Positions 3,174-51,200 of a stretch of DNA of 64,000 bases are shown one piece after another. The notes below the pieces were generated by a model. The model made no database searches. It was not told the DNA's origin and saw only the letters and a list, made by a program, of their open reading frames with translations. Where the stretch lies: positions 33,238 through 97,237 of IMG/VR virus record IMGVR_UViG_3300007535_000003. The stretch is one strand, 5' to 3'. Numbering within the stretch: the first letter of the stretch is position 1; each line of letters opens with the position of its first letter. The position numbers and the translations under genes are program-made. This DNA is from a virus.

Positions 3174-3201
3174 AGGGGTTACAGTGTGTAGCCCCTTTTT
3201 T
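3174..3201 (+). terminator. intrinsic terminator
   Basis: GGGGTTAC/GTAGCCCC stem followed by a T-run. Confidence 0.8.
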
Positions 3202-3260
3202 CACTAAGCTAAATCATGGTATTCCTACAAAATAAGTACCAATAACTAAATTAATTAATC

Positions 3261-3344
3261 ATGGAATTAGAAACAGCTGTTATAATTATGACATTATTTG
3301 CCATGCTTATAATAGTAATTATAAAAGGCAATAAGGATAAATAG
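3261..3344 (+). CDS. 27-aa single-TM microprotein
   Basis: MELETAVIIMTLFAMLIIVIIKGNKDK*, flanked by 20-bp direct repeats. Confidence 0.45.
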   Translation: MELETAVIIMTLFAMLIIVIIKGNKDK

Positions 3345-3645
3345 TAAGTACTGATAACTAAATTGAGTACTATCAGATCTGAAAGTTTAGTCCAAATTTG
3401 GACTGTCTGAAGTATGTTGGCATATCCCCAAATAAAGCCATATAAGCTGTTTATAGTCTAAATAGACCTGTAGTACCTAAACTACCCTATGAAGGCTTTA
3501 AATCGCTTAAAAAGGGCATTTATGGGCAAATGAGGGAGAGTGTTATAGGTCGTCTAAACTCACGCCTCAATCAGCCCTAATTTCACATAATCAATAACCC
3601 AACCTATATAATACTAATAGCTATAAACCACAAAAATATACAACT

Positions 3646-4029
3646 ATGAATAAAATTGAATTAATTGGAAGAGGTACAATAATTAACATTGATGATATTA
3701 ATTATTGTATTGAATCTCACAGCCATAATGACCCTGAATTAACAAGCTCAGTCTATCCCAGTAGGTACCTTTGCGTATTTGTCATTAAAGATGGGATAAA
3801 GTTTAGGATAGGATATATTAACTACAACGAACTAACCTGGTTTGATACACAAGCAAGGGAACAACTTATAGAGCATCCTAGTGATATAAAACAAGTTACT
3901 GTTATTAATGTCTTAAATTCGGTAGAGTTTAGTGTAAAAAGACTCCACACACCTTTACATGAATTTGATAGGCTGGATGAAGAGAACAGGGAAATGGTAT
4001 TTGAAAGATTAGTTGACACTGAACTTTAA
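3646..4029 (+). CDS. hypothetical early protein
   Basis: 127-aa ORF preceded by the AACCACAAA motif. Confidence 0.7.
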   Translation: MNKIELIGRGTIINIDDINYCIESHSHNDPELTSSVYPSRYLCVFVIKDGIKFRIGYINYNELTWFDTQAREQLIEHPSDIKQVTVINVLNSVEFSVKRLHTPLHEFDRLDEENREMVFERLVDTEL

Positions 4030-4040
4030 ACCACAAAACT

Positions 4041-4301
4041 ATGAAAATAATAAAAATAGTATTTAGGGTATTGTTAGTACCTATAATAATAGCAGCTGAA
4101 TTAGCAATCACAGCTGTATGTGGGTGGGGTATAGGGAAACTAATCCTATACTTTACACATGTAGATGAAATAGATTTGTTAGCATGCGACAGTTCAGTCC
4201 TTGAAACTATGTACTTAGGGGTAATCATTATAGTAGCATTTGTAACAGTATGTTTACTATTATATATAATATACTTATTAATTAAAGAATTTATTATATA
4301 A
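4041..4301 (+). CDS. two-TM membrane protein
   Basis: Two hydrophobic stretches; motif-led start. Confidence 0.7.
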   Translation: MKIIKIVFRVLLVPIIIAAELAITAVCGWGIGKLILYFTHVDEIDLLACDSSVLETMYLGVIIIVAFVTVCLLLYIIYLLIKEFII

Positions 4302-4314
4302 TCAAATCAATAGT

Positions 4315-4521
4315 ATGACTAGAGAGCAAATAACATTAGTAATAAAGAAACGTGAGGATTTATTAGAACAAAATCCTAATTTAAGGAAGGGTCAAGCATT
4401 CTACCTAATGTTAAGTACATACTTCTATCACAAAGCAATGGAAATTACAGCTACAAAATTTGACCCATTCTATGAAGATAAGAAGATTCCCAAGTGTATT
4501 AACTATCTTTTAAATCATTAA
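4315..4521 (+). CDS. hypothetical protein
   Basis: 68 aa with an LRKGQAF...FDPFY pattern typical of small phage proteins. Confidence 0.7.
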   Translation: MTREQITLVIKKREDLLEQNPNLRKGQAFYLMLSTYFYHKAMEITATKFDPFYEDKKIPKCINYLLNH

Positions 4522-4549
4522 ATACTATTAACTACAAAACTATAAGATT

Positions 4550-5071
4550 ATGAAGATTTACAGATTTAAAACTAAGGAAGAACTCATGAAAGAGTTTGGT
4601 TCTAATTTTAGAACTAAAGCACGTTTTAACAGTGAAGGTGAGATGGATTACCTATTCGGTACACCAGTGACAAAAGACTTCTATGAAGAAGTTGCAAACC
4701 AAGGTATTGCTATGATAGACAATGTAAATCCACATGCTTATCCCACCTTGTGGTCTGTCAACAATAAAATGTTAACCTGGAACTATAAACCTAAAAGGGG
4801 GGAAATAGTTGTAATTACACATTACCACAGTGGTAATATTGAAGGTACAGTTACTAAAATATTGGAAGCAAAATGGTACAGTGATTTAATATTATGTGAA
4901 GCCTTTACTGGTGATCCAATTAGAAATTTAAGACACCTAAACAAGCCTGCTTGGTTTGAAGCAGAGTATAGACCTGCTACTGAAGAAGAGAAAGAATTCT
5001 ACAGACTTGCTAAGAAAAAGGGGCGAGTTGCCATAGTAGGGCAAAGTAGTGGAAAACCACACATCTGTTAA
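4550..5071 (+). CDS. hypothetical protein
   Basis: 173 aa, YRFKTKEE N-terminus and RPATEEE motif. Confidence 0.75.
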   Translation: MKIYRFKTKEELMKEFGSNFRTKARFNSEGEMDYLFGTPVTKDFYEEVANQGIAMIDNVNPHAYPTLWSVNNKMLTWNYKPKRGEIVVITHYHSGNIEGTVTKILEAKWYSDLILCEAFTGDPIRNLRHLNKPAWFEAEYRPATEEEKEFYRLAKKKGRVAIVGQSSGKPHIC

Positions 5072-5126
5072 ACTAAACCACAAAGCTACAAAGTTATAAA
5101 TAAGTTAAATTAAACCACAAAATAAA

Positions 5127-5369
5127 GTGATTGAAAAAGGATTAGAAAGACTTAATAATCGTAAAGCCAAGCTTCTCAGGGATAGGGAAGCAATCAGTAC
5201 AGGTAGAATAGTATTTAGGAATAATAGGTTGTTAAACAACAAAAACTACAACCCATTGTTTGCAGAAGAATACAGATTCTCCCTCATCAGCTACATTGAC
5301 AAGAAAGTAGTGGAAATTGATGAAGAGATTGCAAAAAGTGAAGCTCCCCAGTTAGGTATGGGGAGCTGA
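5127..5369 (+). CDS. hypothetical protein
   Basis: 80 aa, GTG start right after the motif. Confidence 0.6.
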   Translation: MIEKGLERLNNRKAKLLRDREAISTGRIVFRNNRLLNNKNYNPLFAEEYRFSLISYIDKKVVEIDEEIAKSEAPQLGMGS

Positions 5370-5393
5370 TTATTAACCACAAAATATAGATGT

Positions 5394-5798
5394 ATGACAT
5401 CAAAAGCATTAGTATGGTTAAATTCCAACAAAGTACAGATTGGGGATCGAGTATTATTACTACCTGACGTACTCAAGGACAACCCTACAGAAGAATTAGC
5501 AGGACATGCTGTAGTAATTACTGGGTTAATACCTACAAAGGATTATAAGACAGCCTATGTAGAAGTAGGTAAACGTCTTCCTATTGGTGTAATAGGCTAT
5601 TGCCAACCTAATTATTATAGGCTGCTTAAAGCTACTCATTACAAGGTTAAGCAAACAGGTACAAAATGGCCTAAGTCAACTAATTGGCACAAGATCACAG
5701 ATTTCTTTGTGATGCTAAAAGGTTGGGAATACCAATTTGCTATCAAGGAAGATGGTTATATGATCCCATTGCAAACCAGGAAGTGGTGGAGATTATGA
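5394..5798 (+). CDS. hypothetical protein
   Basis: 134-aa motif-led ORF. Confidence 0.65.
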   Translation: MTSKALVWLNSNKVQIGDRVLLLPDVLKDNPTEELAGHAVVITGLIPTKDYKTAYVEVGKRLPIGVIGYCQPNYYRLLKATHYKVKQTGTKWPKSTNWHKITDFFVMLKGWEYQFAIKEDGYMIPLQTRKWWRL

Positions 5799-6124
5799 TA
5801 AGTAGGTGGCAAATATCCGGCAAGACCTTGGATAATAAGCTACTAGTCTCGTTTTTAAAGAAAGAGAGTTTATTAAATAGGTTTATTGATCTAACATACT
5901 TCTTTGCTTCTAAAACATCTAAGTTAAAAGCATCAAAGAGTGACCCATTTACGAGTACTAACAGCCCATTAAATATAAACGGGGATCTAAATGCTATATC
6001 ACAAGCATTTCCATGGGCAGCATCAATCGAAAGGGAACTATTCTGGTGTTCTATTGACAAAAAGTACAGAAAGTATGTAAAAACTAAAAAAAGGGAGGCT
6101 AAATATGAAAACCAGGTTAGATAG
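5795..6124 (+). CDS. hypothetical protein (likely start at ATG 5795 rather than 5684)
   Basis: ATGA overlap with the upstream stop codon. Confidence 0.55.
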   Translation: MISRWQISGKTLDNKLLVSFLKKESLLNRFIDLTYFFASKTSKLKASKSDPFTSTNSPLNINGDLNAISQAFPWAASIERELFWCSIDKKYRKYVKTKKREAKYENQVR

Positions 6125-6287
6125 AGCTAAAACTAGGCTTTCAGGTCAGCTGAATAGGCCTAAGTCCAAAAATATGCGAACTCGTGGAAAGAAAGTAATT
6201 GATAAGCGAGTACCAAGGGATGAAGAGCGTATAGTTGAACTGCAACAACGGATTAGCAGGCTAAAACGAGAGCAACATACGCAGTAG
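6105..6287 (+). CDS. small basic hypothetical protein
   Basis: 60 aa, Arg/Lys-rich, GGGAGG upstream. Confidence 0.55.
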   Translation: MKTRLDRAKTRLSGQLNRPKSKNMRTRGKKVIDKRVPRDEERIVELQQRISRLKREQHTQ

Positions 6288-6591
6288 AACCACAAACAAC
6301 AGAACTGTAGTAACCCATGTAGGATTAAGCCAGATGGTTGCTGCACAAACAGTAGGTCTTTAAATAAAACTATACAGACAACACCATAAATAGTTGTCAC
6401 CCCAAAGAAAGGGTATGAATGCTGAAGTACAGCTGATACAGCTCTTTCCCTACTGTTTTCCAATAACAGGTATTTTTTTGAGGACTTTTGTCCACCAGAT
6501 TATAACAAATAGTTTAAATACCGTAATTATGAGAGTACTTAAGCCACCTTAATTAACAACAACTAAAATTTATTTATTATTATTTTAGAGA

Positions 6592-6635
6592 TTAAATTAT
6601 TAAAACTAAACAGTTAAATTATTAAAACTAAACAG
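6592..6635. repeat. 22-bp tandem duplication
   Basis: TTAAATTATTAAAACTAAACAG x2. Confidence 0.9.
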
Positions 6636-6720
6636 GTAGATCTATTCTGACAGATACGCGCTCATTGAGGGTGGGATCTACCTGTTTATCTTATACAATA
6701 AACCACAAAAATTAAGTAAG

Positions 6721-7341
6721 ATGAAAAAAAACTTTAACAAAGAAATAGACATACTTAGACAGCTTCTCATATATAAGGAAAACTGTCAGTACGAAATGAG
6801 CTTAAGACAGCCGATAGGTGACGGACCTATGGCGCTTGTAAGTAGAGCCAGGTATGTTACAGGGTATATGTCTACAAGGTGGTTTGATCTATTTGACATA
6901 TACAAAGAGTTACAACTAACAGTTGGTTGGAATTTAAGTGATTTATTAAGTAAAAGCATAATTGACTTAGGATGTGGAACAGGATTACTTGTAGACTTAT
7001 TCAGCATAATATTTAAGAAAACTTATGGAATAGAAGCTGATTGGAATCTTTGTAAGATAGCTACAATAATGAGGCCTCATCTAGAAATATACAATGGATA
7101 TGTACAGGAAAGAGTAGACTTAATACTCAGGTTAGATCCTGACATTATTTATGCTTTTAATATCACAGGTGAACCAAGAGAAACATTTGATGAGTTATTC
7201 AGGAAGATGCGCAAGGGACAAGTATTTGTACATCTAGGGGGCTCAACAGAGATAGAAGAGTTAATAGATGAACACAAGTTTAATACATCTAACAAAGAGG
7301 AAGATAGGCAATCAGCCAGAGTACTGATAGCTATTAAATAA
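6721..7341 (+). CDS. class I SAM-dependent methyltransferase
   Basis: IIDLGCGTG motif I followed by YGIE. Confidence 0.8.
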   Translation: MKKNFNKEIDILRQLLIYKENCQYEMSLRQPIGDGPMALVSRARYVTGYMSTRWFDLFDIYKELQLTVGWNLSDLLSKSIIDLGCGTGLLVDLFSIIFKKTYGIEADWNLCKIATIMRPHLEIYNGYVQERVDLILRLDPDIIYAFNITGEPRETFDELFRKMRKGQVFVHLGGSTEIEELIDEHKFNTSNKEEDRQSARVLIAIK

Positions 7342-7359
7342 AACCACAAAATTAAAAAT

Positions 7360-7488
7360 ATGGATTGGGAACAATCAAGAGACGAAGATAGAGAATTTGA
7401 TCCTAATGATGGACAAGATATCTACGGATGCATACTAGGAGCAATTATGTGGATAGCACTAATAGCACTAGCGATTTTCTGTAGATAA
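7360..7488 (+). CDS. 42-aa acidic, C-terminal-TM microprotein
   Basis: MDWEQSRDEDREFDPNDGQDIYGCILGAIMWIALIALAIFCR*, motif-led. Confidence 0.55.
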   Translation: MDWEQSRDEDREFDPNDGQDIYGCILGAIMWIALIALAIFCR

Positions 7489-7608
7489 ACCACAAAAATG
7501 AAATTGTTAAAAATATAGAGAGATCTTGGAGCCCAATCAGGGCTATCGGCGACGACACGGTGGTAACCAGCCCATACAGCAGTCGTACTTCAGGTCTCCC
7601 TAACTTAT

Positions 7609-7728
7609 GGTCCGTTCGTCTAGTGGTAGGACGCCGAGCTGTTAATACTTTATACATGCACTAGCTATGTTAGAGTATCAACCATGGTTTGCCCCACGGA
7701 AACGGAGGTTCGACTCCTCCACGGACTG
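7609..7728 (+). ncRNA. tRNA-like RNA with an expanded anticodon arm
   Basis: Acceptor GGTCCGT/ACGGACT, D-arm GTCT-AGTGGT-AGGAC, T-arm GGAGG-TTCGACT-CCTCC; about 50 extra nt in the anticodon arm. Confidence 0.75.
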
Positions 7729-7733
7729 CTGTT

Positions 7734-7926
7734 AGCCATATAGCTCAAAAGTGTTACACTCAAGTTCCTAGGAATCGGCTGTAACCCCCAAGGATATGCA
7801 GAGGAGAATGGAACTTATTTGGACTTAAAATCCAATCCATTCTAGGCCACCTCACGCAGAGTCCGAGTAGCGGAAGAGCCCCTAATAAATTATAGGGAGA
7901 TCTGGGTTCGAGTCCCAGTATGGCTA
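7734..7926 (+). ncRNA. tRNA-like RNA with a ~120-nt insert in the D-loop
   Basis: Acceptor AGCCATA/TATGGCT, D-stem GCTC/GAGC, CCCTA/TAGGG arm, T-arm CTGGG-TTCGAGT-CCCAG. Confidence 0.75.
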
Positions 7927-7961
7927 CTATTTTTATTTACAAACCACAAAAATTAAATATT

Positions 7962-8129
7962 ATGTCAGCATTAATTGCATTCCTTGTAACAATGGCATTC
8001 CTAAGTTTAATGGGCTATGCCTTATTACCTTACGGGACTAAGGAGGAAGCCTCAACGAGAAAAGTAGTAGGTATTGTAGCAATTTTAGCTACAGTAGTAA
8101 TACTAATATTAACTTTAATAATATCCTAA
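7962..8129 (+). CDS. two-TM small membrane protein
   Basis: MSALIAFLV... start follows the AACCACAAA motif; two hydrophobic helices. Confidence 0.65.
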   Translation: MSALIAFLVTMAFLSLMGYALLPYGTKEEASTRKVVGIVAILATVVILILTLIIS

Positions 8130-8132
8130 AGT

Positions 8133-8390
8133 ATGGAAAAACGTTATGCCCTTAACAGGGGAGACATCTTAGTCTTACTGTTAAATGGGAAGAAAAAGAC
8201 ATTTAGGGTCTTATCCTCAAAAGATAGCATGGGAAAAGACGCCGACAGTAGTAATAAGAAAGAGCCTTTGGATCTCAATATAAGTAGCGAGCTATTCAAA
8301 GAGATCGAAAAGAAACTGCCTGAAGTATTTTTTAAGAAAATCCGATGGAAATCTAACTCAGTAAGATTATTAAGCGTTAAAAGGAGCTAA
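8133..8390 (+). CDS. hypothetical protein
   Basis: 85-aa ORF in operon. Confidence 0.6.
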   Translation: MEKRYALNRGDILVLLLNGKKKTFRVLSSKDSMGKDADSSNKKEPLDLNISSELFKEIEKKLPEVFFKKIRWKSNSVRLLSVKRS

Positions 8391-8393
8391 GAC

Positions 8394-8898: not shown

Positions 8899-9519
8899 CA
8901 AAAGGTCGAAGTTAAACTGGGTGAATTCAGGGAAACCTAAGTCACAATGATAAGGCAACCCTGAGCCAAGCCCTTAAGAGGGAAGGTGCAGAGACTACCT
9001 GAATACAGGCTAGAGCGCCCAGCACTTAAAAGTGAAGAGATAGTCCGATACTCCTGAGAAATTAGGAGAAGAAGCGAGATGTAAATTCTTGACGTTTTGA
9101 TAAGGTTTCTTTTGTATATTTACCATTACGAGGTGTTATACTCTTCAATTCGTTAAGTATCATATCTATACGTCTACGCTTCTTGGGATGTCTGGAATTT
9201 ATGTAAGATAGTACGTTTATACATTTAGGTAAATAAGTATACCTCAGCTCATAATTAGTAAAATCACCTGATTTTTTAGTACAAATGAATCCATTATGAC
9301 CTGTTTCAAGTTTAATAAATTTTTCTATTTCCACAAGTAGGTCATATTCGTTATTACTAAAAGAAATAACAGGTGATCTTTCGCAATTCTTATGTAAACG
9401 TAAAAATGTTATCGTGCCGTCAGCATCAAAGAAACCTGTAATATATTCCCAACCCATATTTTTATTGAATATACGGACGCAGGTTTGAAATGTTACTGTT
9501 CCAGATGTTTTAACTATTG
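8899..9519 (+). mobile_element. group I intron in the tmRNA T-loop
   Basis: P1 with U.G at the splice site (TTCGAT/GTCGAA); P GAATTCAGGGAAAC 8923; Q AACCCTGAGCCAAG 8957; R GTGCAGAGACTA 8986; S AAGAGATAGTCC 9035; P3 CTGGGTG/CGCCCAG; extra P7.1 hairpin (IA-like); terminal G9519. Confidence 0.92.
9062..9457 (-). CDS. single-motif LAGLIDADG homing endonuclease, antisense within the intron
   Basis: N-terminal YITGFFDADGTI motif, 131 aa, located in the P9 region of the intron. Confidence 0.9.
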   Translation of the reverse strand: MGWEYITGFFDADGTITFLRLHKNCERSPVISFSNNEYDLLVEIEKFIKLETGHNGFICTKKSGDFTNYELRYTYLPKCINVLSYINSRHPKKRRRIDMILNELKSITPRNGKYTKETLSKRQEFTSRFFS

Positions 9520-11626: not shown

Positions 11627-12151
11627 ATGTCAAAAAGTAAAAAAGAAAGAAACACTTCACACGACGCAATAGAGTTAATACTCGTAAGCGTGCGTATCAA
11701 CGAGCTCAGGAGCTTAAGGTTACGGTTATTTAACGACATTTATTTAATACGTTCAACCTGTCAAAACTCCAAGTTTACAAGAGCTTCTAGTACTATCAAC
11801 AATATGAGTTTACTCATAAGCGAGATAGATGCTAGAAGAAAAAGCTTAACAAGGAGAAGTAGATCCTTGATGGTAAGAATGATTAAGCTAACCAATAAAA
11901 CATTTCAAGAAAAACCATCAGAGCTAGTGCCCTTACACAATAAAGATATTGAAACTGGGTATGTAGAACTGACGGAAGTAACTGAACAAGGTGAACTTAT
12001 ACCCCATTTACTACTACTTGATAGTGGTAAAATAGAACCAGCTAACAATGTAAGAGCTAAACAGATCATGGCAAGAGGTCCCAGCTATACCGGGTTCACC
12101 TTCGATAAAATAAAAGCCTTGGCTATAATGTCTGAAACCTGGCCAAGGTAG
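11627..12151 (+). CDS. hypothetical protein
   Basis: 174-aa ORF. Confidence 0.7.
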   Translation: MSKSKKERNTSHDAIELILVSVRINELRSLRLRLFNDIYLIRSTCQNSKFTRASSTINNMSLLISEIDARRKSLTRRSRSLMVRMIKLTNKTFQEKPSELVPLHNKDIETGYVELTEVTEQGELIPHLLLLDSGKIEPANNVRAKQIMARGPSYTGFTFDKIKALAIMSETWPR

Positions 12152-12215
12152 CACATAATATTTTTTGTGGTTTGAGTCGATTTAGGTGCGAGCCTATTTC
12201 GGCTTCAATTTTTGT
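12152..12215 (+). ncRNA. candidate antisense sRNA to the AACCACAAA/AUG leaders
   Basis: CATAATATTTTTTGTGGTTTG followed by a GCGA-tetraloop hairpin and a T-rich tail. Confidence 0.55.
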
Positions 12216-23310: not shown

Positions 23311-24241
23311 AGTGTTGCATTATAAACAAATTGCCCTACCCGCCAGGGAAATTATTCAGTATATGGATAAAAGACGGAAAGGGGATATTACTTCGTTAAA
23401 GACTAAGTGGAAAAAGTTTAATGATCAGTGTATGGGAGGTATTGAGCCAAATAGTATCTACACTATAGCAGGCATATCAGGAAGTGGTAAATCAGCATTT
23501 GCCAACAGTCTAGAAACTGACCTATTCGACCAGAATCCCAATGAAAACTTTGTTGTACTTTCCTTCAATTTCGAGATGTTAGCTTCAAAGCAAGTGGGGA
23601 GGAAGCTGTCATACAAATTAGATAAAACAACACAAGAGCTTTATAGCGGCTTGTCCAACCACAAACTATCAGAATTTGACTACCACAAAGCTATTGAAGA
23701 AGCTAAAAAAATTAAAGATCTACCTATATATTATGTAGATACCCCTGGAACGGTCTCTCAGATTAGAGAGACTATCACTGATTTTTCCAATAGAGTCGCT
23801 AAAGATAGGTGGCTCATAATATTACTCGATCACACCTTGTTAACAAGAGGTAAACAAGGTGAAAAAGAAAGGGAGACATTAGCTGAATTACAGTATATGT
23901 TCATGGAAATTAAGAAGTATGACCAAAATACTATAATTCAGTTGTCTCAAATGAACAGAGAGATAGAAGCTAAAGAAAGGATTATGGTTAATACTATGCA
24001 TTTTCCGGTGCGTAGGGATATATTTGGTGGTGATTCTGTATTTCAAGCATCAGATTATCTTTTAGTGCTGCATAGGCCAGAAATGCTTAATATCTCCTCG
24101 TATGGGCCTGAAGGTTGGCCTACCAAAGATCTCATTTACATGCACTTTTTAAAAGTGCGAGAAGGAAACCCAAGTATTTTAGTTTTTAAGAATAACTTAA
24201 AGTACAATAAGATTGAAGATTATAACCTTAAAGATTCGTAA
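23290..24241 (+). CDS. dnaB: DnaB-like replicative helicase
   Basis: Walker A GISGSGKS, FEM, LDH, LSQMNR, KVREG; likely start MANNS. Confidence 0.92.
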
Positions 24242-36221: not shown

Positions 36222-36258
36222 TAATGGGGGGCTTGTTGCTGAGTCCCCTATTATTTTT
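36222..36258. terminator. terminator between the convergent blocks
   Basis: GGGGGCT/AGTCCCC hairpin and T-rich tail. Confidence 0.65.
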
Positions 36259-48200: not shown

Positions 48201-51200
48201 TTCTTTAGCTACCCCTTCTTCCCTAGCATATTTATATATACGCTGTTCAAAATTATTTACCTTGCCAGGCTTATCCTGTGAATCAGTCAAATAGGGAACA
48301 AGTATAGGATTACCATCCTTATCTAGTTCATAATTTTCCCTAAATACAAATAATTTGTCAATATCGAAATCAGAACCTGTAAGAGTAGTAAACTCTGCAG
48401 GCAGTATAACTGCATCTTTATAATTCTCTGGTAAGAAACCTACTATATTTAAGCTAGATACAGAGTTAGGACCTTGAGTAGGAACCCTATAACCTAAGGC
48501 TTGTGGGTTATTTTTAAGGAACTTTTTCTTCTGTTCAAAAGTGAGATTCTTATAGTTGGGTATTGCATCTTTATACAAATCAACACTGACAACAGCGTCC
48601 ATAGATATAATATTGCCCCCTTTACCTATCCTGTAGTACTTAAGATCTTCCTTAGCTTCTTGCAACCATGTAATCTTATCCTTGTACTTATCTAACCCTT
48701 CAGTAGACTTAAGACGTCTACCAAAGTTAGATACTTGTATAAAGGGCTTACCAGGTATCAAAAGATCTATAATATTCTTATTAATAAGTGATACAACCCT
48801 ATTCTCTATCCACTTTCTGTTTGGCAGAGAATCAAATTCTGGATAATTACCGTTAGCATCTGGAGTAAGGGCATCTACTATGTTGTTAGGACTGTTAGAC
48901 CTTACAGCATCCTCTCTGAGGACTTCTAAGAGCTTCAATTCATTTTCGACTACTCCAGTACTAGGATTGATCCCCATGCCAGTGAGGAGCTTCCTAGCCC
49001 CTATTGTGGACAATCTACCAAGGGACTTGTTAATAGTATTAAGTATTTCTTTACCAGTAACATCTTTACCTTGTAGACTATAAATACCAGCTTTATTAAC
49101 ATTATACATAGGAACTTTCTTAACCTGTGTACCTAAAGCTATTTCAGTTTCTTCGTGGGGATCAGTCATAATCTGTCTCCTAAGAAACTCAAACTTCTGA
49201 CTATATACAGCTGCTTTATCTAACGAGTTTATATCTTCATGCTCAGCATCTGCATAAAATTCAAACCTATCCCTATTACCTACTTTGGTAGCGGTATCAA
49301 ATTTAACTTGATGTATTTTTTGTAAGTCGCCGTTAAGATTGAAAGTACCCCCAGGAGCGTAATCCCCTTTTAGCTCCATTCGATCTAACAACTCTTCAAG
49401 CTCAGTATCTTTGACTATATCCCTGGTAAGTACGGCCATAGACATTTTATCGTATGTAGGTACAGCCATACCCCTTTCATAGCTAGGGCCAAAGTATACT
49501 AACTTTAACGGTGGAAGTGGGTTAGTATCAAATTCGCCTCTCTCACCCTGTAAATCTGCTAAAGCTTGATCATCTTCTATATGCCATTCGCCTAAACGTT
49601 CTTTTATAGACTTATACATTTCAGGTGAAATAAATACCTGTGCATCTGTTTGGTCTACTTTTTTGTAGTTATTAAGCTTATTAGTAGAAAGTCTATCAGC
49701 TTCTACTGAAGAATACCCTTGTTCCAGCAGTAGATTCATGTAGTTATTCTTCAACTGCGGATAGTATACGCTGCTAACAATATTAGTATCTAGCGTAATA
49801 CTGTTGTATTCAGTTTCATTAGCTAACCTATGACCGCTTGGGAAATCAGTACGTAGATTCTCACCTGTAGACCCTAGTACAGAGGAACGCTTAACTTTAT
49901 TTACATCAGTACTAAAAAATGCTGGATCGCCTAATAGAACTTTATCTGTCTCTATTGTAGATACTAGGTTGTTAACAGCATAAGTAGCTATAATATCTTT
50001 AATAGCATGGTTAGTATTTCCCCCATATCTTTCCTTAGCTATATTATCTACAAGAGTACTATCTAAGTACTTGTTGCCTTGTATAGTTACTTTCTTACCT
50101 TCTACTTTAGTATCTATAATACCATATTCAGAAGCTAATTTAATAGTATCTAGTATATTAGATACTACTATATTCATAGCGTCCTGCTTTATATCTTTAG
50201 CTCGTTTCTTATTCAGGCTAGTAAACTCGTGAAACTTAGTACCATCACCTAAATAGTTACCTTGATTATCTTTAAATACTTTATATAAAGCTCTACCAAT
50301 CTGTTTATAAACAAAACCAGATCTAGGCTTAATATTGTCTAACTTATAATGATAGTCTTCTACCAGATGAGTAGTTTCCCCGGTCTTTAAAGCTTCTTCA
50401 ATCTGTTCTTTTGTCTGCTCTATCCTATTCTGTTCATCTAATATATAACCTTCTATTATCCTGATTATTTCAGAATCATAAGGTATTATAGTTTCCCCTT
50501 TATTATTCAGGGTAAAACTAAAATCAACAGGTTCTATACCACTGAAGTAATAGAAACTAGACCTATCAGCTAAAGTAGGCAATGGCAGCTTACCATGCTT
50601 AGTAGAATGCAACCTAGCTATTAAGTCTTCCATAGGGTTCATTCCCTCGTAGGATCTGCCCTGATCTAGGTATTCTCTAACAAAGGCAGAAAAAGTATCT
50701 AGTTTAAACTTAGCCCTAGCATTTGCATCTTCGCTAATACGTTTTAATATGTAAGAATTCTTATTGAATACAGCAGACCTATGGAGCTGTAAAGCCTCAG
50801 GATCTTTCTTTAACTTCCTTATAAAGTCTGTAGTAAAGCTGTTAAGCATATACTTAAAGTGGGCATTCCCTTGAGGACCCAATATAGTAGAAGACAGATT
50901 CTCAGGACTATACTCAGCAAAATACTGGCCTAAGTCCCTGGCTATACTTTCATTCAAGAACAATTCACTAGTATCATATCTATCCCCATTAGCTTTAGTA
51001 GGGAAATTGTCTAAAGAAGCTTGGTACAAAGTACCAGATCTTTCAAATAAGCCCTTTAGCCTATTAAGCAGATTCATAGCAGCACCGTATCTACCAGATG
51101 TATCATCTTGATCTAATACATATAGTAAAAGATCTTCATCAGTAGGTATATTTATACTATTGAGTAGACTACTGAGGGACCTTAGTAGCTTACCTAATTG

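Follow-up and report, generated by a model that had tools for sequence, protein, structure and literature searches.

The virion two-barrel RNA polymerase of phage P23-45 (gp96) uses 14 copies of one short AT-rich motif that stand before small pre-early genes, with 14 transcription start sites (10.1101/2022.12.01.518664), and the virion RNA polymerase (vRNAP) of phage N4 uses hairpin promoters (PMC4496689). In the crAss-like Cellulophaga phage phi14:2, gp66 transcribes the early genes of the same arm as the one considered here, and these early transcripts have no common upstream motif (preprint 10.1101/2020.03.07.982082). Repeats of another kind, the start-associated sequences (SAS) of Cluster K mycobacteriophages, have been described near gene starts (Pope et al. 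2011, PMC3203893), and their function was still open in 2025 (PMC12699233). Here we examine a short repeated DNA motif at the start of the rightward gene arm of an uncultured soil phage, IMGVR_UViG_3300007535_000003. The window analyzed is the 64,000-nt stretch corresponding to bases 33238–97237 of this 97,237-bp virus record, and all coordinates below are window positions. The motif is a real, sharply defined, and lineage-specific signal of the early block. Judging from the sequence, we tentatively read it as a compact early promoter, carried on the non-template strand, that would be recognized by the phage's own crAss-type virion RNA polymerase, a reading we consider plausible while stopping well short of confidence in it.

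The motif consists of 12 G-free bases, TAAACCACAAAA, with a 9-mer core, AACCACAAA, and alignment of the copies yielded the full unit tAAACCACAAAa. No second conserved block was found around it in the 25 nt upstream and 30 nt downstream of the aligned copies. The 97,237-bp genome has 12 exact matches to AACCACAAA, all of them within the window. Ten of these lie on the + strand, none of them in an open reading frame (ORF), with core starts at 3626, 4029, 5076, 5113, 5375, 6288, 6701, 7342, 7488, and 7942; the remaining two are found at 23657 (+, inside the helicase ORF) and 12172 (−, spanning 12164–12172). A one-mismatch copy, AACTACAAA, at 4530 precedes the ORF starting at 4550. The preliminary description, made from the sequence alone, had reported about ten copies in 4.3 kb, which agrees with the ten exact copies and one variant found here on the + strand between 3626 and 7950, all exact ones being intergenic. 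Dinucleotide shuffles of the window gave 0.40 expected occurrences (shuffle maximum 2) against the 12 observed, and the core is the top over-represented 9-mer genome-wide (11 vs. 0.52 on the + strand, z = 14.6, order-3 Markov model). When only intergenic sequence was modeled, 0.05–0.08 copies per strand were expected across all 11.9 kb, where 8–10 are seen. The genome-wide excess (12 vs. 0.4–0.5) thus persists between genes once AT content is modeled, and the shuffle, Markov, and intergenic models rule out an origin of the repeat by chance or AT bias. All ten core copies have the same sequence, with an information content of ~17–20 bits, which is sufficient for uniqueness in a 97-kb genome. 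No copy precedes a replication or virion gene, and the preliminary description had noticed none there either; the lone copy at 23657–23665 (+) lies in frame inside a DnaB-like helicase ORF and is probably due to chance. The motif keeps to one strand, falls between genes, is limited to the first 4.3 kb of the rightward arm, and precedes genes unrelated to one another, all of which supports the earlier suggestion that it defines an early regulon. Two other words, TAAAGATAA and ATTAGCTAAT, were rejected as signals after proving to be coding-strand words or a single palindrome, and a literature search on the motif string returned primers and unrelated matches only.

Counting the ten exact copies and the variant, the block comprises 11 units, all on the + strand. 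The motif begins 0–6 nt past the stop of the preceding gene, and three copies take their first three bases from that stop (TAA). Its end lies 3–11 nt before a start codon in eight of the units, five of these eight at 9–11 nt, and no ORF follows in the other three (5076, 6288, and 7488). Copy 1 (3624–3635) has no gene directly upstream and stands 11 nt before the ATG of ORF 3646–4029 (127 aa), the stop of which is the TAA of copy 2 (4027–4038), itself 3 nt from the ATG of ORF 4041–4301 (86 aa, membrane-like). The variant TTAACTACAAAA (4528–4539, one core mismatch) leaves 11 nt to the ATG of ORF 4550–5071 (173 aa). Copies 3 and 4 form a tandem pair: the former (5074–5085) is an orphan, with the next copy 37 nt further on and no start codon in between, and the latter (5111–5122) is 5 nt from the GTG of ORF 5127–5369 (80 aa). 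Copy 5 (5373–5384) follows a hairpin (5342–5367) by 8 nt and precedes the ATG of ORF 5394–5798 (134 aa) by 10 nt; after this gene come ORFs 5795–6124 and 6105–6287, which overlap, lack the motif, and have a GGAG resembling a Shine–Dalgarno (SD) sequence. Copy 6 (6286–6297) adjoins the stop of ORF 6105–6287 and leads into a structured stretch with no ORF (6297–6700). Copy 7 (6699–6710), ~10 nt after a long hairpin, lies 11 nt from the ATG of ORF 6721–7341 (206 aa, with a weak methyltransferase-like match), and copy 8 (7340–7351) adjoins the stop of that ORF, 9 nt ahead of the ATG of ORF 7360–7488 (42 aa). The TAA of copy 9 (7486–7497) is the stop of ORF 7360–7488, and a 6-codon frame and then tRNA-like genes follow it. 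Finally, copy 10 (7940–7951) starts 16 nt after a tRNA 3′ end with a T-run and is 11 nt from the ATG of ORF 7962–8129 (55 aa, membrane-like). The pairs of motif and start codon given in the preliminary description all hold except the one joining 7487 to 7498, which turns out to be the 6-codon frame.

A polymerase scan of viral contigs gave one closer relative, G001 (69% identity; lineage of IMGVR_UViG_3300007635_000010), a 23-kb fragment beginning downstream of the early block, and several other contigs with ~50% identity, the more distant relatives including G002 (93.9 kb) and G003 (96.4 kb). In G001, an intergenic forward copy of the motif immediately follows a terminator hairpin, and the next ATG comes about 80 nt later (82 by coordinates). 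The motif is absent from the relatives at ~50% polymerase identity, including G002 and G003. Scans of viral contigs with the proteins of ORFs 6721, 10553, and 2553 and a metagenome scan with ORF 6721 recovered no close relative carrying the early block; a protein search with ORF 10553 gave one 34% relative on a 3.6-kb contig. These phages share G-poor, A/C-rich leaders. A start-abutting aAATCAAAATG occurs 16 times in G002 (L032–L033, 9212–33278) against 1.4 expected and is common to G003, a start-abutting AACTAACTA occurs five times in G001 (L025, 412–5207), and the homologous block of the soil phage (9983–16769) has looser ACTAAC/ACTAAA leaders. The general flavor of the motif fits these SD-less leaders of the phage group, but ten identical 12-mers in a single block do not. 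A 34-nt look-alike of the junction at 4024–4057 in the soil runs (L037) was rejected as a relative, since it is a chromosomal gene junction of a Bacteroidota-type bacterium with a similar leader.

A candidate reader of the motif is encoded by the phage itself. The 7427-aa ORF at 36258–58541 (−) contains a crAss-type virion RNA polymerase domain that matches phi14:2 gp66 (PDB 6VR4; phmmer E-value 7e-43, over gp66 residues 703–1392 and 1613–1827) and keeps the catalytic DFDID (48357–48371), alongside cpYpsA (SLOG), ART-PolyVal, and AAA_33/Zeta-toxin-like kinase domains. The recognition of this polymerase makes the promoter reading, which the preliminary description had not raised, attractive. 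Since RNA genes, too, are preceded by the motif and one copy is a tandem orphan, the signal likely acts on DNA or on whole transcripts rather than on ribosomes alone. A purely translational signal, one of the options raised in the preliminary description, accordingly fits poorly: three of the 11 units have no ORF, two of these stand before RNA genes, and the copy in G001 directly follows a terminator, ~80 nt from the next start. A transcription start signal is the simplest solution for a motif found before tRNA genes, noncoding RNA genes, and ORFs, sometimes after terminators and, in a relative, at a distance from the start codon; the G001 arrangement of terminator then promoter, not adjacent to a start, counts in its favor. 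Under this model, tAAACCACAAAa would be the promoter core on the non-template strand, and the virion RNA polymerase, injected together with the DNA, would read it. Every copy would then start a short transcription unit, whether of one, two, or three small ORFan genes, of a structured noncoding RNA, or of the tRNA pair. Transcription starting in or just past the A-run would produce very short G-free leaders of 3–12 nt, suited to a host without SD pairing, and junctions within a unit would rely on overlapping or SD-like coupled starts instead of the motif. Recognition of the motif by the polymerase, the position of the transcription start, and the standing of the block as the earliest temporal class are all points that we infer. 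The restriction of the motif to this lineage, with none in the ~50% relatives, would be expected for a co-evolving polymerase and promoter. Hairpins or a tRNA end a short distance upstream of three copies (5375, 6701, and 7942), the gene order shared with phi14:2, and the precedent of P23-45 also favor a promoter.

Several observations weigh against a promoter. The only crAss-like phage tested, phi14:2, has early transcripts that share no upstream motif, and our own search found no comparable over-represented word in phi14:2. Twelve conserved bases with nothing conserved upstream would also make a small promoter. The spacing of 9–11 nt in five of the eight units that lead into an ORF would equally suit an RNA element close to the ribosome, and the start-abutting words of the relatives (aAATCAAAATG and AACTAACTA) resemble translation contexts. 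Lastly, the motif has a conserved reverse-complement copy next to a hairpin, arranged as in a small RNA whose seed precedes its terminator, and this points to RNA–RNA pairing.

These features bear on an RNA-level leader element, in which the motif would be a start-proximal, SAS-like mRNA tag through which a phage or host factor boosts early translation or later shuts it off. We consider this explanation possible but doubtful. Beyond the short distances to start codons, it draws on the distribution of SD-like sequences. Genes carrying the motif have none, whereas motif-less junctions are overlapping or tightly coupled, and several of them (5795, 6105, and 8394) show GGAG-like sequences; the GGAG/GGAGG words at 5779–5794, 6088–6104, and 8378–8393 occur at overlapping junctions, and only where the motif is absent. 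Hosts of this phage group mostly do not use SD pairing. The sole reverse copy (12160–12173, −; the + strand reads TTTTTTGTGGTTTG) lies just past ORF 11627–12151 and 17 nt before a hairpin with a T-tail (12190–12205). Its surroundings suggest a concrete form of the leader model, in which a + strand RNA from 12150–12215 (seed UUUUUUGUGGUUUG, hairpin, U-tail), possibly the 3′ untranslated region of gene 11627–12151, would pair with the leaders and close early translation once later genes are expressed. The + strand segment 12159–12174 is complementary to the leaders at 7940 and 6700 at 15 of 16 positions, and the 12-nt core of the reverse copy, TTTTTGTGGTTT, is kept in G001 as the longest conserved block in the alignment of the region after the homologue of ORF 11627–12151, even though that protein and the flanking proteins are only ~30% identical. 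A single opposite-strand copy is also found in SAS arrays (PMC3203893). On the other hand, three units have no ORF behind them, the intergenic copy in G001 is ~80 nt from the next start, and one reverse copy is near chance on count alone (~0.5 per strand). Duplex energies between the anti-motif RNA and all leaders did not cleanly separate motif leaders from others, and the G001 contig lacks the early block and therefore allows no comparison of the motif there. The promoter and RNA-leader readings are compatible if the transcription start falls within the motif. Rather unlikely, though worth stating, is an RNA switch formed by the motif and its one conserved reverse-complement copy: a later gene would give rise, from its 3′ end (12150–12215), to a small RNA with seed UUUUUUGUGGUUUG and a terminator hairpin, which would pair with the identical leaders of about ten early units at once and post-transcriptionally shut off the earliest gene class of a lytic crAss-like phage, and the same DNA motif might also serve as the virion-polymerase promoter.

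The RNA genes of the block bear on a further explanation. The ORF-free stretch 6297–6700 (+) folds better than all 100 of its shuffles (z = −4.4), contains an exact 22-nt tandem repeat (6592–6635), and ends in a long hairpin (6618–6699, 25-nt arms) with a T-rich tail just before the copy at 6701, making it a candidate noncoding RNA. Unrelated soil contigs match only the repeat part (6571–6623) of this stretch. Two tRNA genes with large inserts lie at 7609–7728 and 7734–7926 (+; Rfam RF00005, 44.6 and 30.4 bits); both pass the Rfam tRNA threshold while ARAGORN calls neither, and the inserts measure 51 nt in the anticodon region of one and ~126 nt in the D-loop region of the other. The tRNA pair is bracketed by copies 9 (7488) and 10 (7942). 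Terminator-like hairpins, or a tRNA end with a T-run, are found 8–16 nt upstream of the copies at 5375, 6701, and 7942, and the motif itself is predicted to be unpaired. In an RNA-processing scheme, one long early transcript from 3200–3625 would be cut at each copy by a sequence-specific endoribonuclease, releasing the tRNAs, the noncoding RNA, and mRNAs with short leaders. The exact bracketing of the tRNA pair and of the structured stretch (6288 and 6701) would suit such cuts, as would a G-free, unpaired site and upstream hairpins that could serve as 3′ stabilizers. We nevertheless regard processing as improbable: no nuclease with such a site was identified in the window, some junctions have no motif, cutting at the tandem pair 5076/5113 would release a fragment of just 37 nt, and the T-tailed, terminator-like hairpins inside the block disfavor one long transcript.

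The content of the block is highly variable between phages, and its proteins are small, unrelated ORFans with no family matches apart from the weak methyltransferase-like one. Gene duplication fails to explain the repeat, because the downstream genes are unrelated to one another and the early proteins are not paralogues. Since none of its genes has a homologue in the three related phages G001–G003, the region represents a hypervariable accessory block. Such variability might suggest a recombination joint, as the preliminary description had also proposed, in which the shared 12–30 nt at gene boundaries would mainly provide micro-homology for swapping ORFan cassettes and any role in expression would be secondary. 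The promoter/stem-loop cassettes (PeSLs) of T4-type phages have been proposed as swap points of this sort. Contigs from four soil runs span the block with almost no differences, and variant contigs of run X4 lose their match at 3605, which is 21 nt short of copy 1, and at 4552, immediately past the variant leader and its ATG; tandem and decayed copies (5076/5113 and about 3594) also fit cassette exchange. However, these are only two break points at the motif, both on low-depth contigs, and the others (6159, 6571–6623, and 8954–8996) are not at it, so support for this part of the earlier proposal is suggestive but thin. Homology alone would also require neither ten identical cores, nor a strict strand bias, nor a place before RNA genes, and we consider recombination as the primary function very improbable.

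The G-free motif has no GGAGG-like complementarity to the 16S 3′ end and does not match an SD ribosome binding site. A scan for the sigma-70 consensus did no better than shuffles (46 vs. 39 matches), and on the gene strand no Bacteroidota primary-sigma promoter was found, as the motif lacks the T or G called for on the + strand. A translation enhancer acting through rRNA complementarity would pair leader UAAACCACA with 16S rRNA UGUGGUUUA (nt 939–947 of a Pedobacter 16S), and TAAACCACA (3624–3632 and other copies) is indeed perfectly complementary to UGUGGUUUA (L056, 1448–1456), a site inside the small-subunit rRNA gene. A match of at least 9 nt is reached by only 2–3% of shuffled or composition-matched 12-mers (simulated P ~0.02–0.03), though this was one of several tests tried. 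All 80 rRNA loci, mostly from Bacteroidota, contain the 9-nt complement, but these loci were chosen by a longer 16S pattern containing that very 9-mer, so the count reflects the selection and is not an independent test. The 16S segment in question is base-paired inside the 30S head and not free for mRNA, which counts against such pairing, as do the motifs of the relatives, which do not match the same site, and the three ORF-less copies, which would be left unexplained; we give this enhancer almost no credence. The G001 word AACTAACTA has a 9-nt complement in the same Pedobacter 16S (nt 242), but in only 17 of the 80 loci.

Equally hard to credit are leftward host promoters. TAnnTTTG is the −7 box of Bacteroidota primary-sigma promoters, which have TTTG as their −33 box, and the motif extended by 4 nt gives this −7 box when read as its reverse complement, so that the copies would drive antisense transcription. 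Six of the 11 sites have this box on the minus strand (3638, 4041, 4542, 5088, 5096, and 7354). The other five do not, the invariant part of the motif (GTGGTT on the minus strand) falls outside the −7 box, a −33 TTTG is present at one site only, and the block contains no leftward genes.

The overall organization of the genome matches that of phi14:2, with a rightward arm in which small genes and noncoding stretches come first and replication genes (polymerase, helicase, primase, and exonuclease) follow, and a leftward arm carrying the giant gene (7427 aa). The record has a G+C content of 34.8%, and the DNA polymerase of the soil phage is ~30% identical to its counterparts in crAss-like phages. 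The source DNA runs containing the sequence are soil metagenomes, four runs in which the same phage is nearly unchanged. The motif cluster opens the rightward arm, in a position that corresponds by synteny to the early arm of phi14:2, and adjoins a divergent control region (2395–2530 and 3226–3390). Within this region we observed a 32-nt direct repeat at 3226 and 3338 and recurring words of palindrome-like form (ACTGATAG/CTATCAGT), which look like operators, as well as a 27-codon membrane-like ORF (3260–3343) between the repeats. No end repeat is present in the 97,237-bp record. G003 has a 144-bp end repeat that may reflect overlap in the assembly; beside it, the first 300 nt of G003 (L027, 1–300) hold ~9–10 copies of a GC-rich GCATTAGCGGCAGCATAAGCAGC-like word.

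crAss-like phages are among the most abundant viruses known. To our knowledge, all of them carry a giant virion RNA polymerase, and the one member tested, phi14:2, showed no common early motif. Ten identical 12-nt copies before the first small genes and RNA genes of the soil phage offer a testable candidate for the signal of a crAss-type virion polymerase. Should the signal instead act at the RNA level, it would be the first SAS counterpart in a phage whose known relatives infect Bacteroidota, with a plausible partner RNA. Under both readings, sequence is enough to delimit the presumed earliest regulon of this uncultured soil phage.

Among described systems, T4 RegA and RegB act on shared short signals in early-gene initiation regions, so that one phage factor switches a whole class off; RegB cuts GGAG in SD sequences. 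The PeSLs of T4-type phages, which mark swap points of ORFan cassettes, combine sigma-70 promoters with stem-loops. Neither the sequence nor the structure of the RegA/RegB targets or the PeSLs matches the soil-phage motif, and no homologue of RegA or RegB came to light, although no search was aimed at one. SAS are closer in layout: both are short asymmetric repeats of ~10–19 copies restricted to the non-structural part of the genome, kept in one orientation with a single opposite-strand copy, separated by a few bases from the start codons of the unrelated genes that follow, often overlapping the upstream stop, and absent from host-like background. SAS (GGGATAGGAGCCC), however, contain the SD core AGGAG and lie 3–7 bp from virtually every associated start, whereas the G-free motif described here is 3–11 nt from the start in eight units, stands before no ORF in three of 11, two of these preceding RNA genes, and has no inverted repeat like the ESAS. 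Phage lineage and host phylum are also unrelated. The motif is not a member of the SAS, since it lacks an SD core, differs in sequence, and has copies away from starts. With phi14:2, the soil phage shares a homologous polymerase, the same gene order, a rightward early arm, and a leftward polymerase arm, although the phi14:2 enzyme is a separate 2180-aa protein and that of the soil phage is fused into the 7427-aa polyvalent protein. N4 differs in that the promoter itself forms a hairpin, whereas the soil-phage motif has no self-complementarity and hairpins stand upstream of only three of the 11 units. The polymerase of the soil phage also differs from those of P23-45 and N4 in being crAss/QDE-1-like, a kind with no promoter consensus so far, as in phi14:2. 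Yet P23-45, N4, and the soil phage have in common an RNA polymerase of their own of the virion type, assigned here to the virion-packaged type by homology, and a short lineage-specific motif repeated many times ahead of small genes where the early arm, in the soil phage a presumed one, begins. By analogy, then, the motif appears to work more like the early promoters of virion-polymerase phages.

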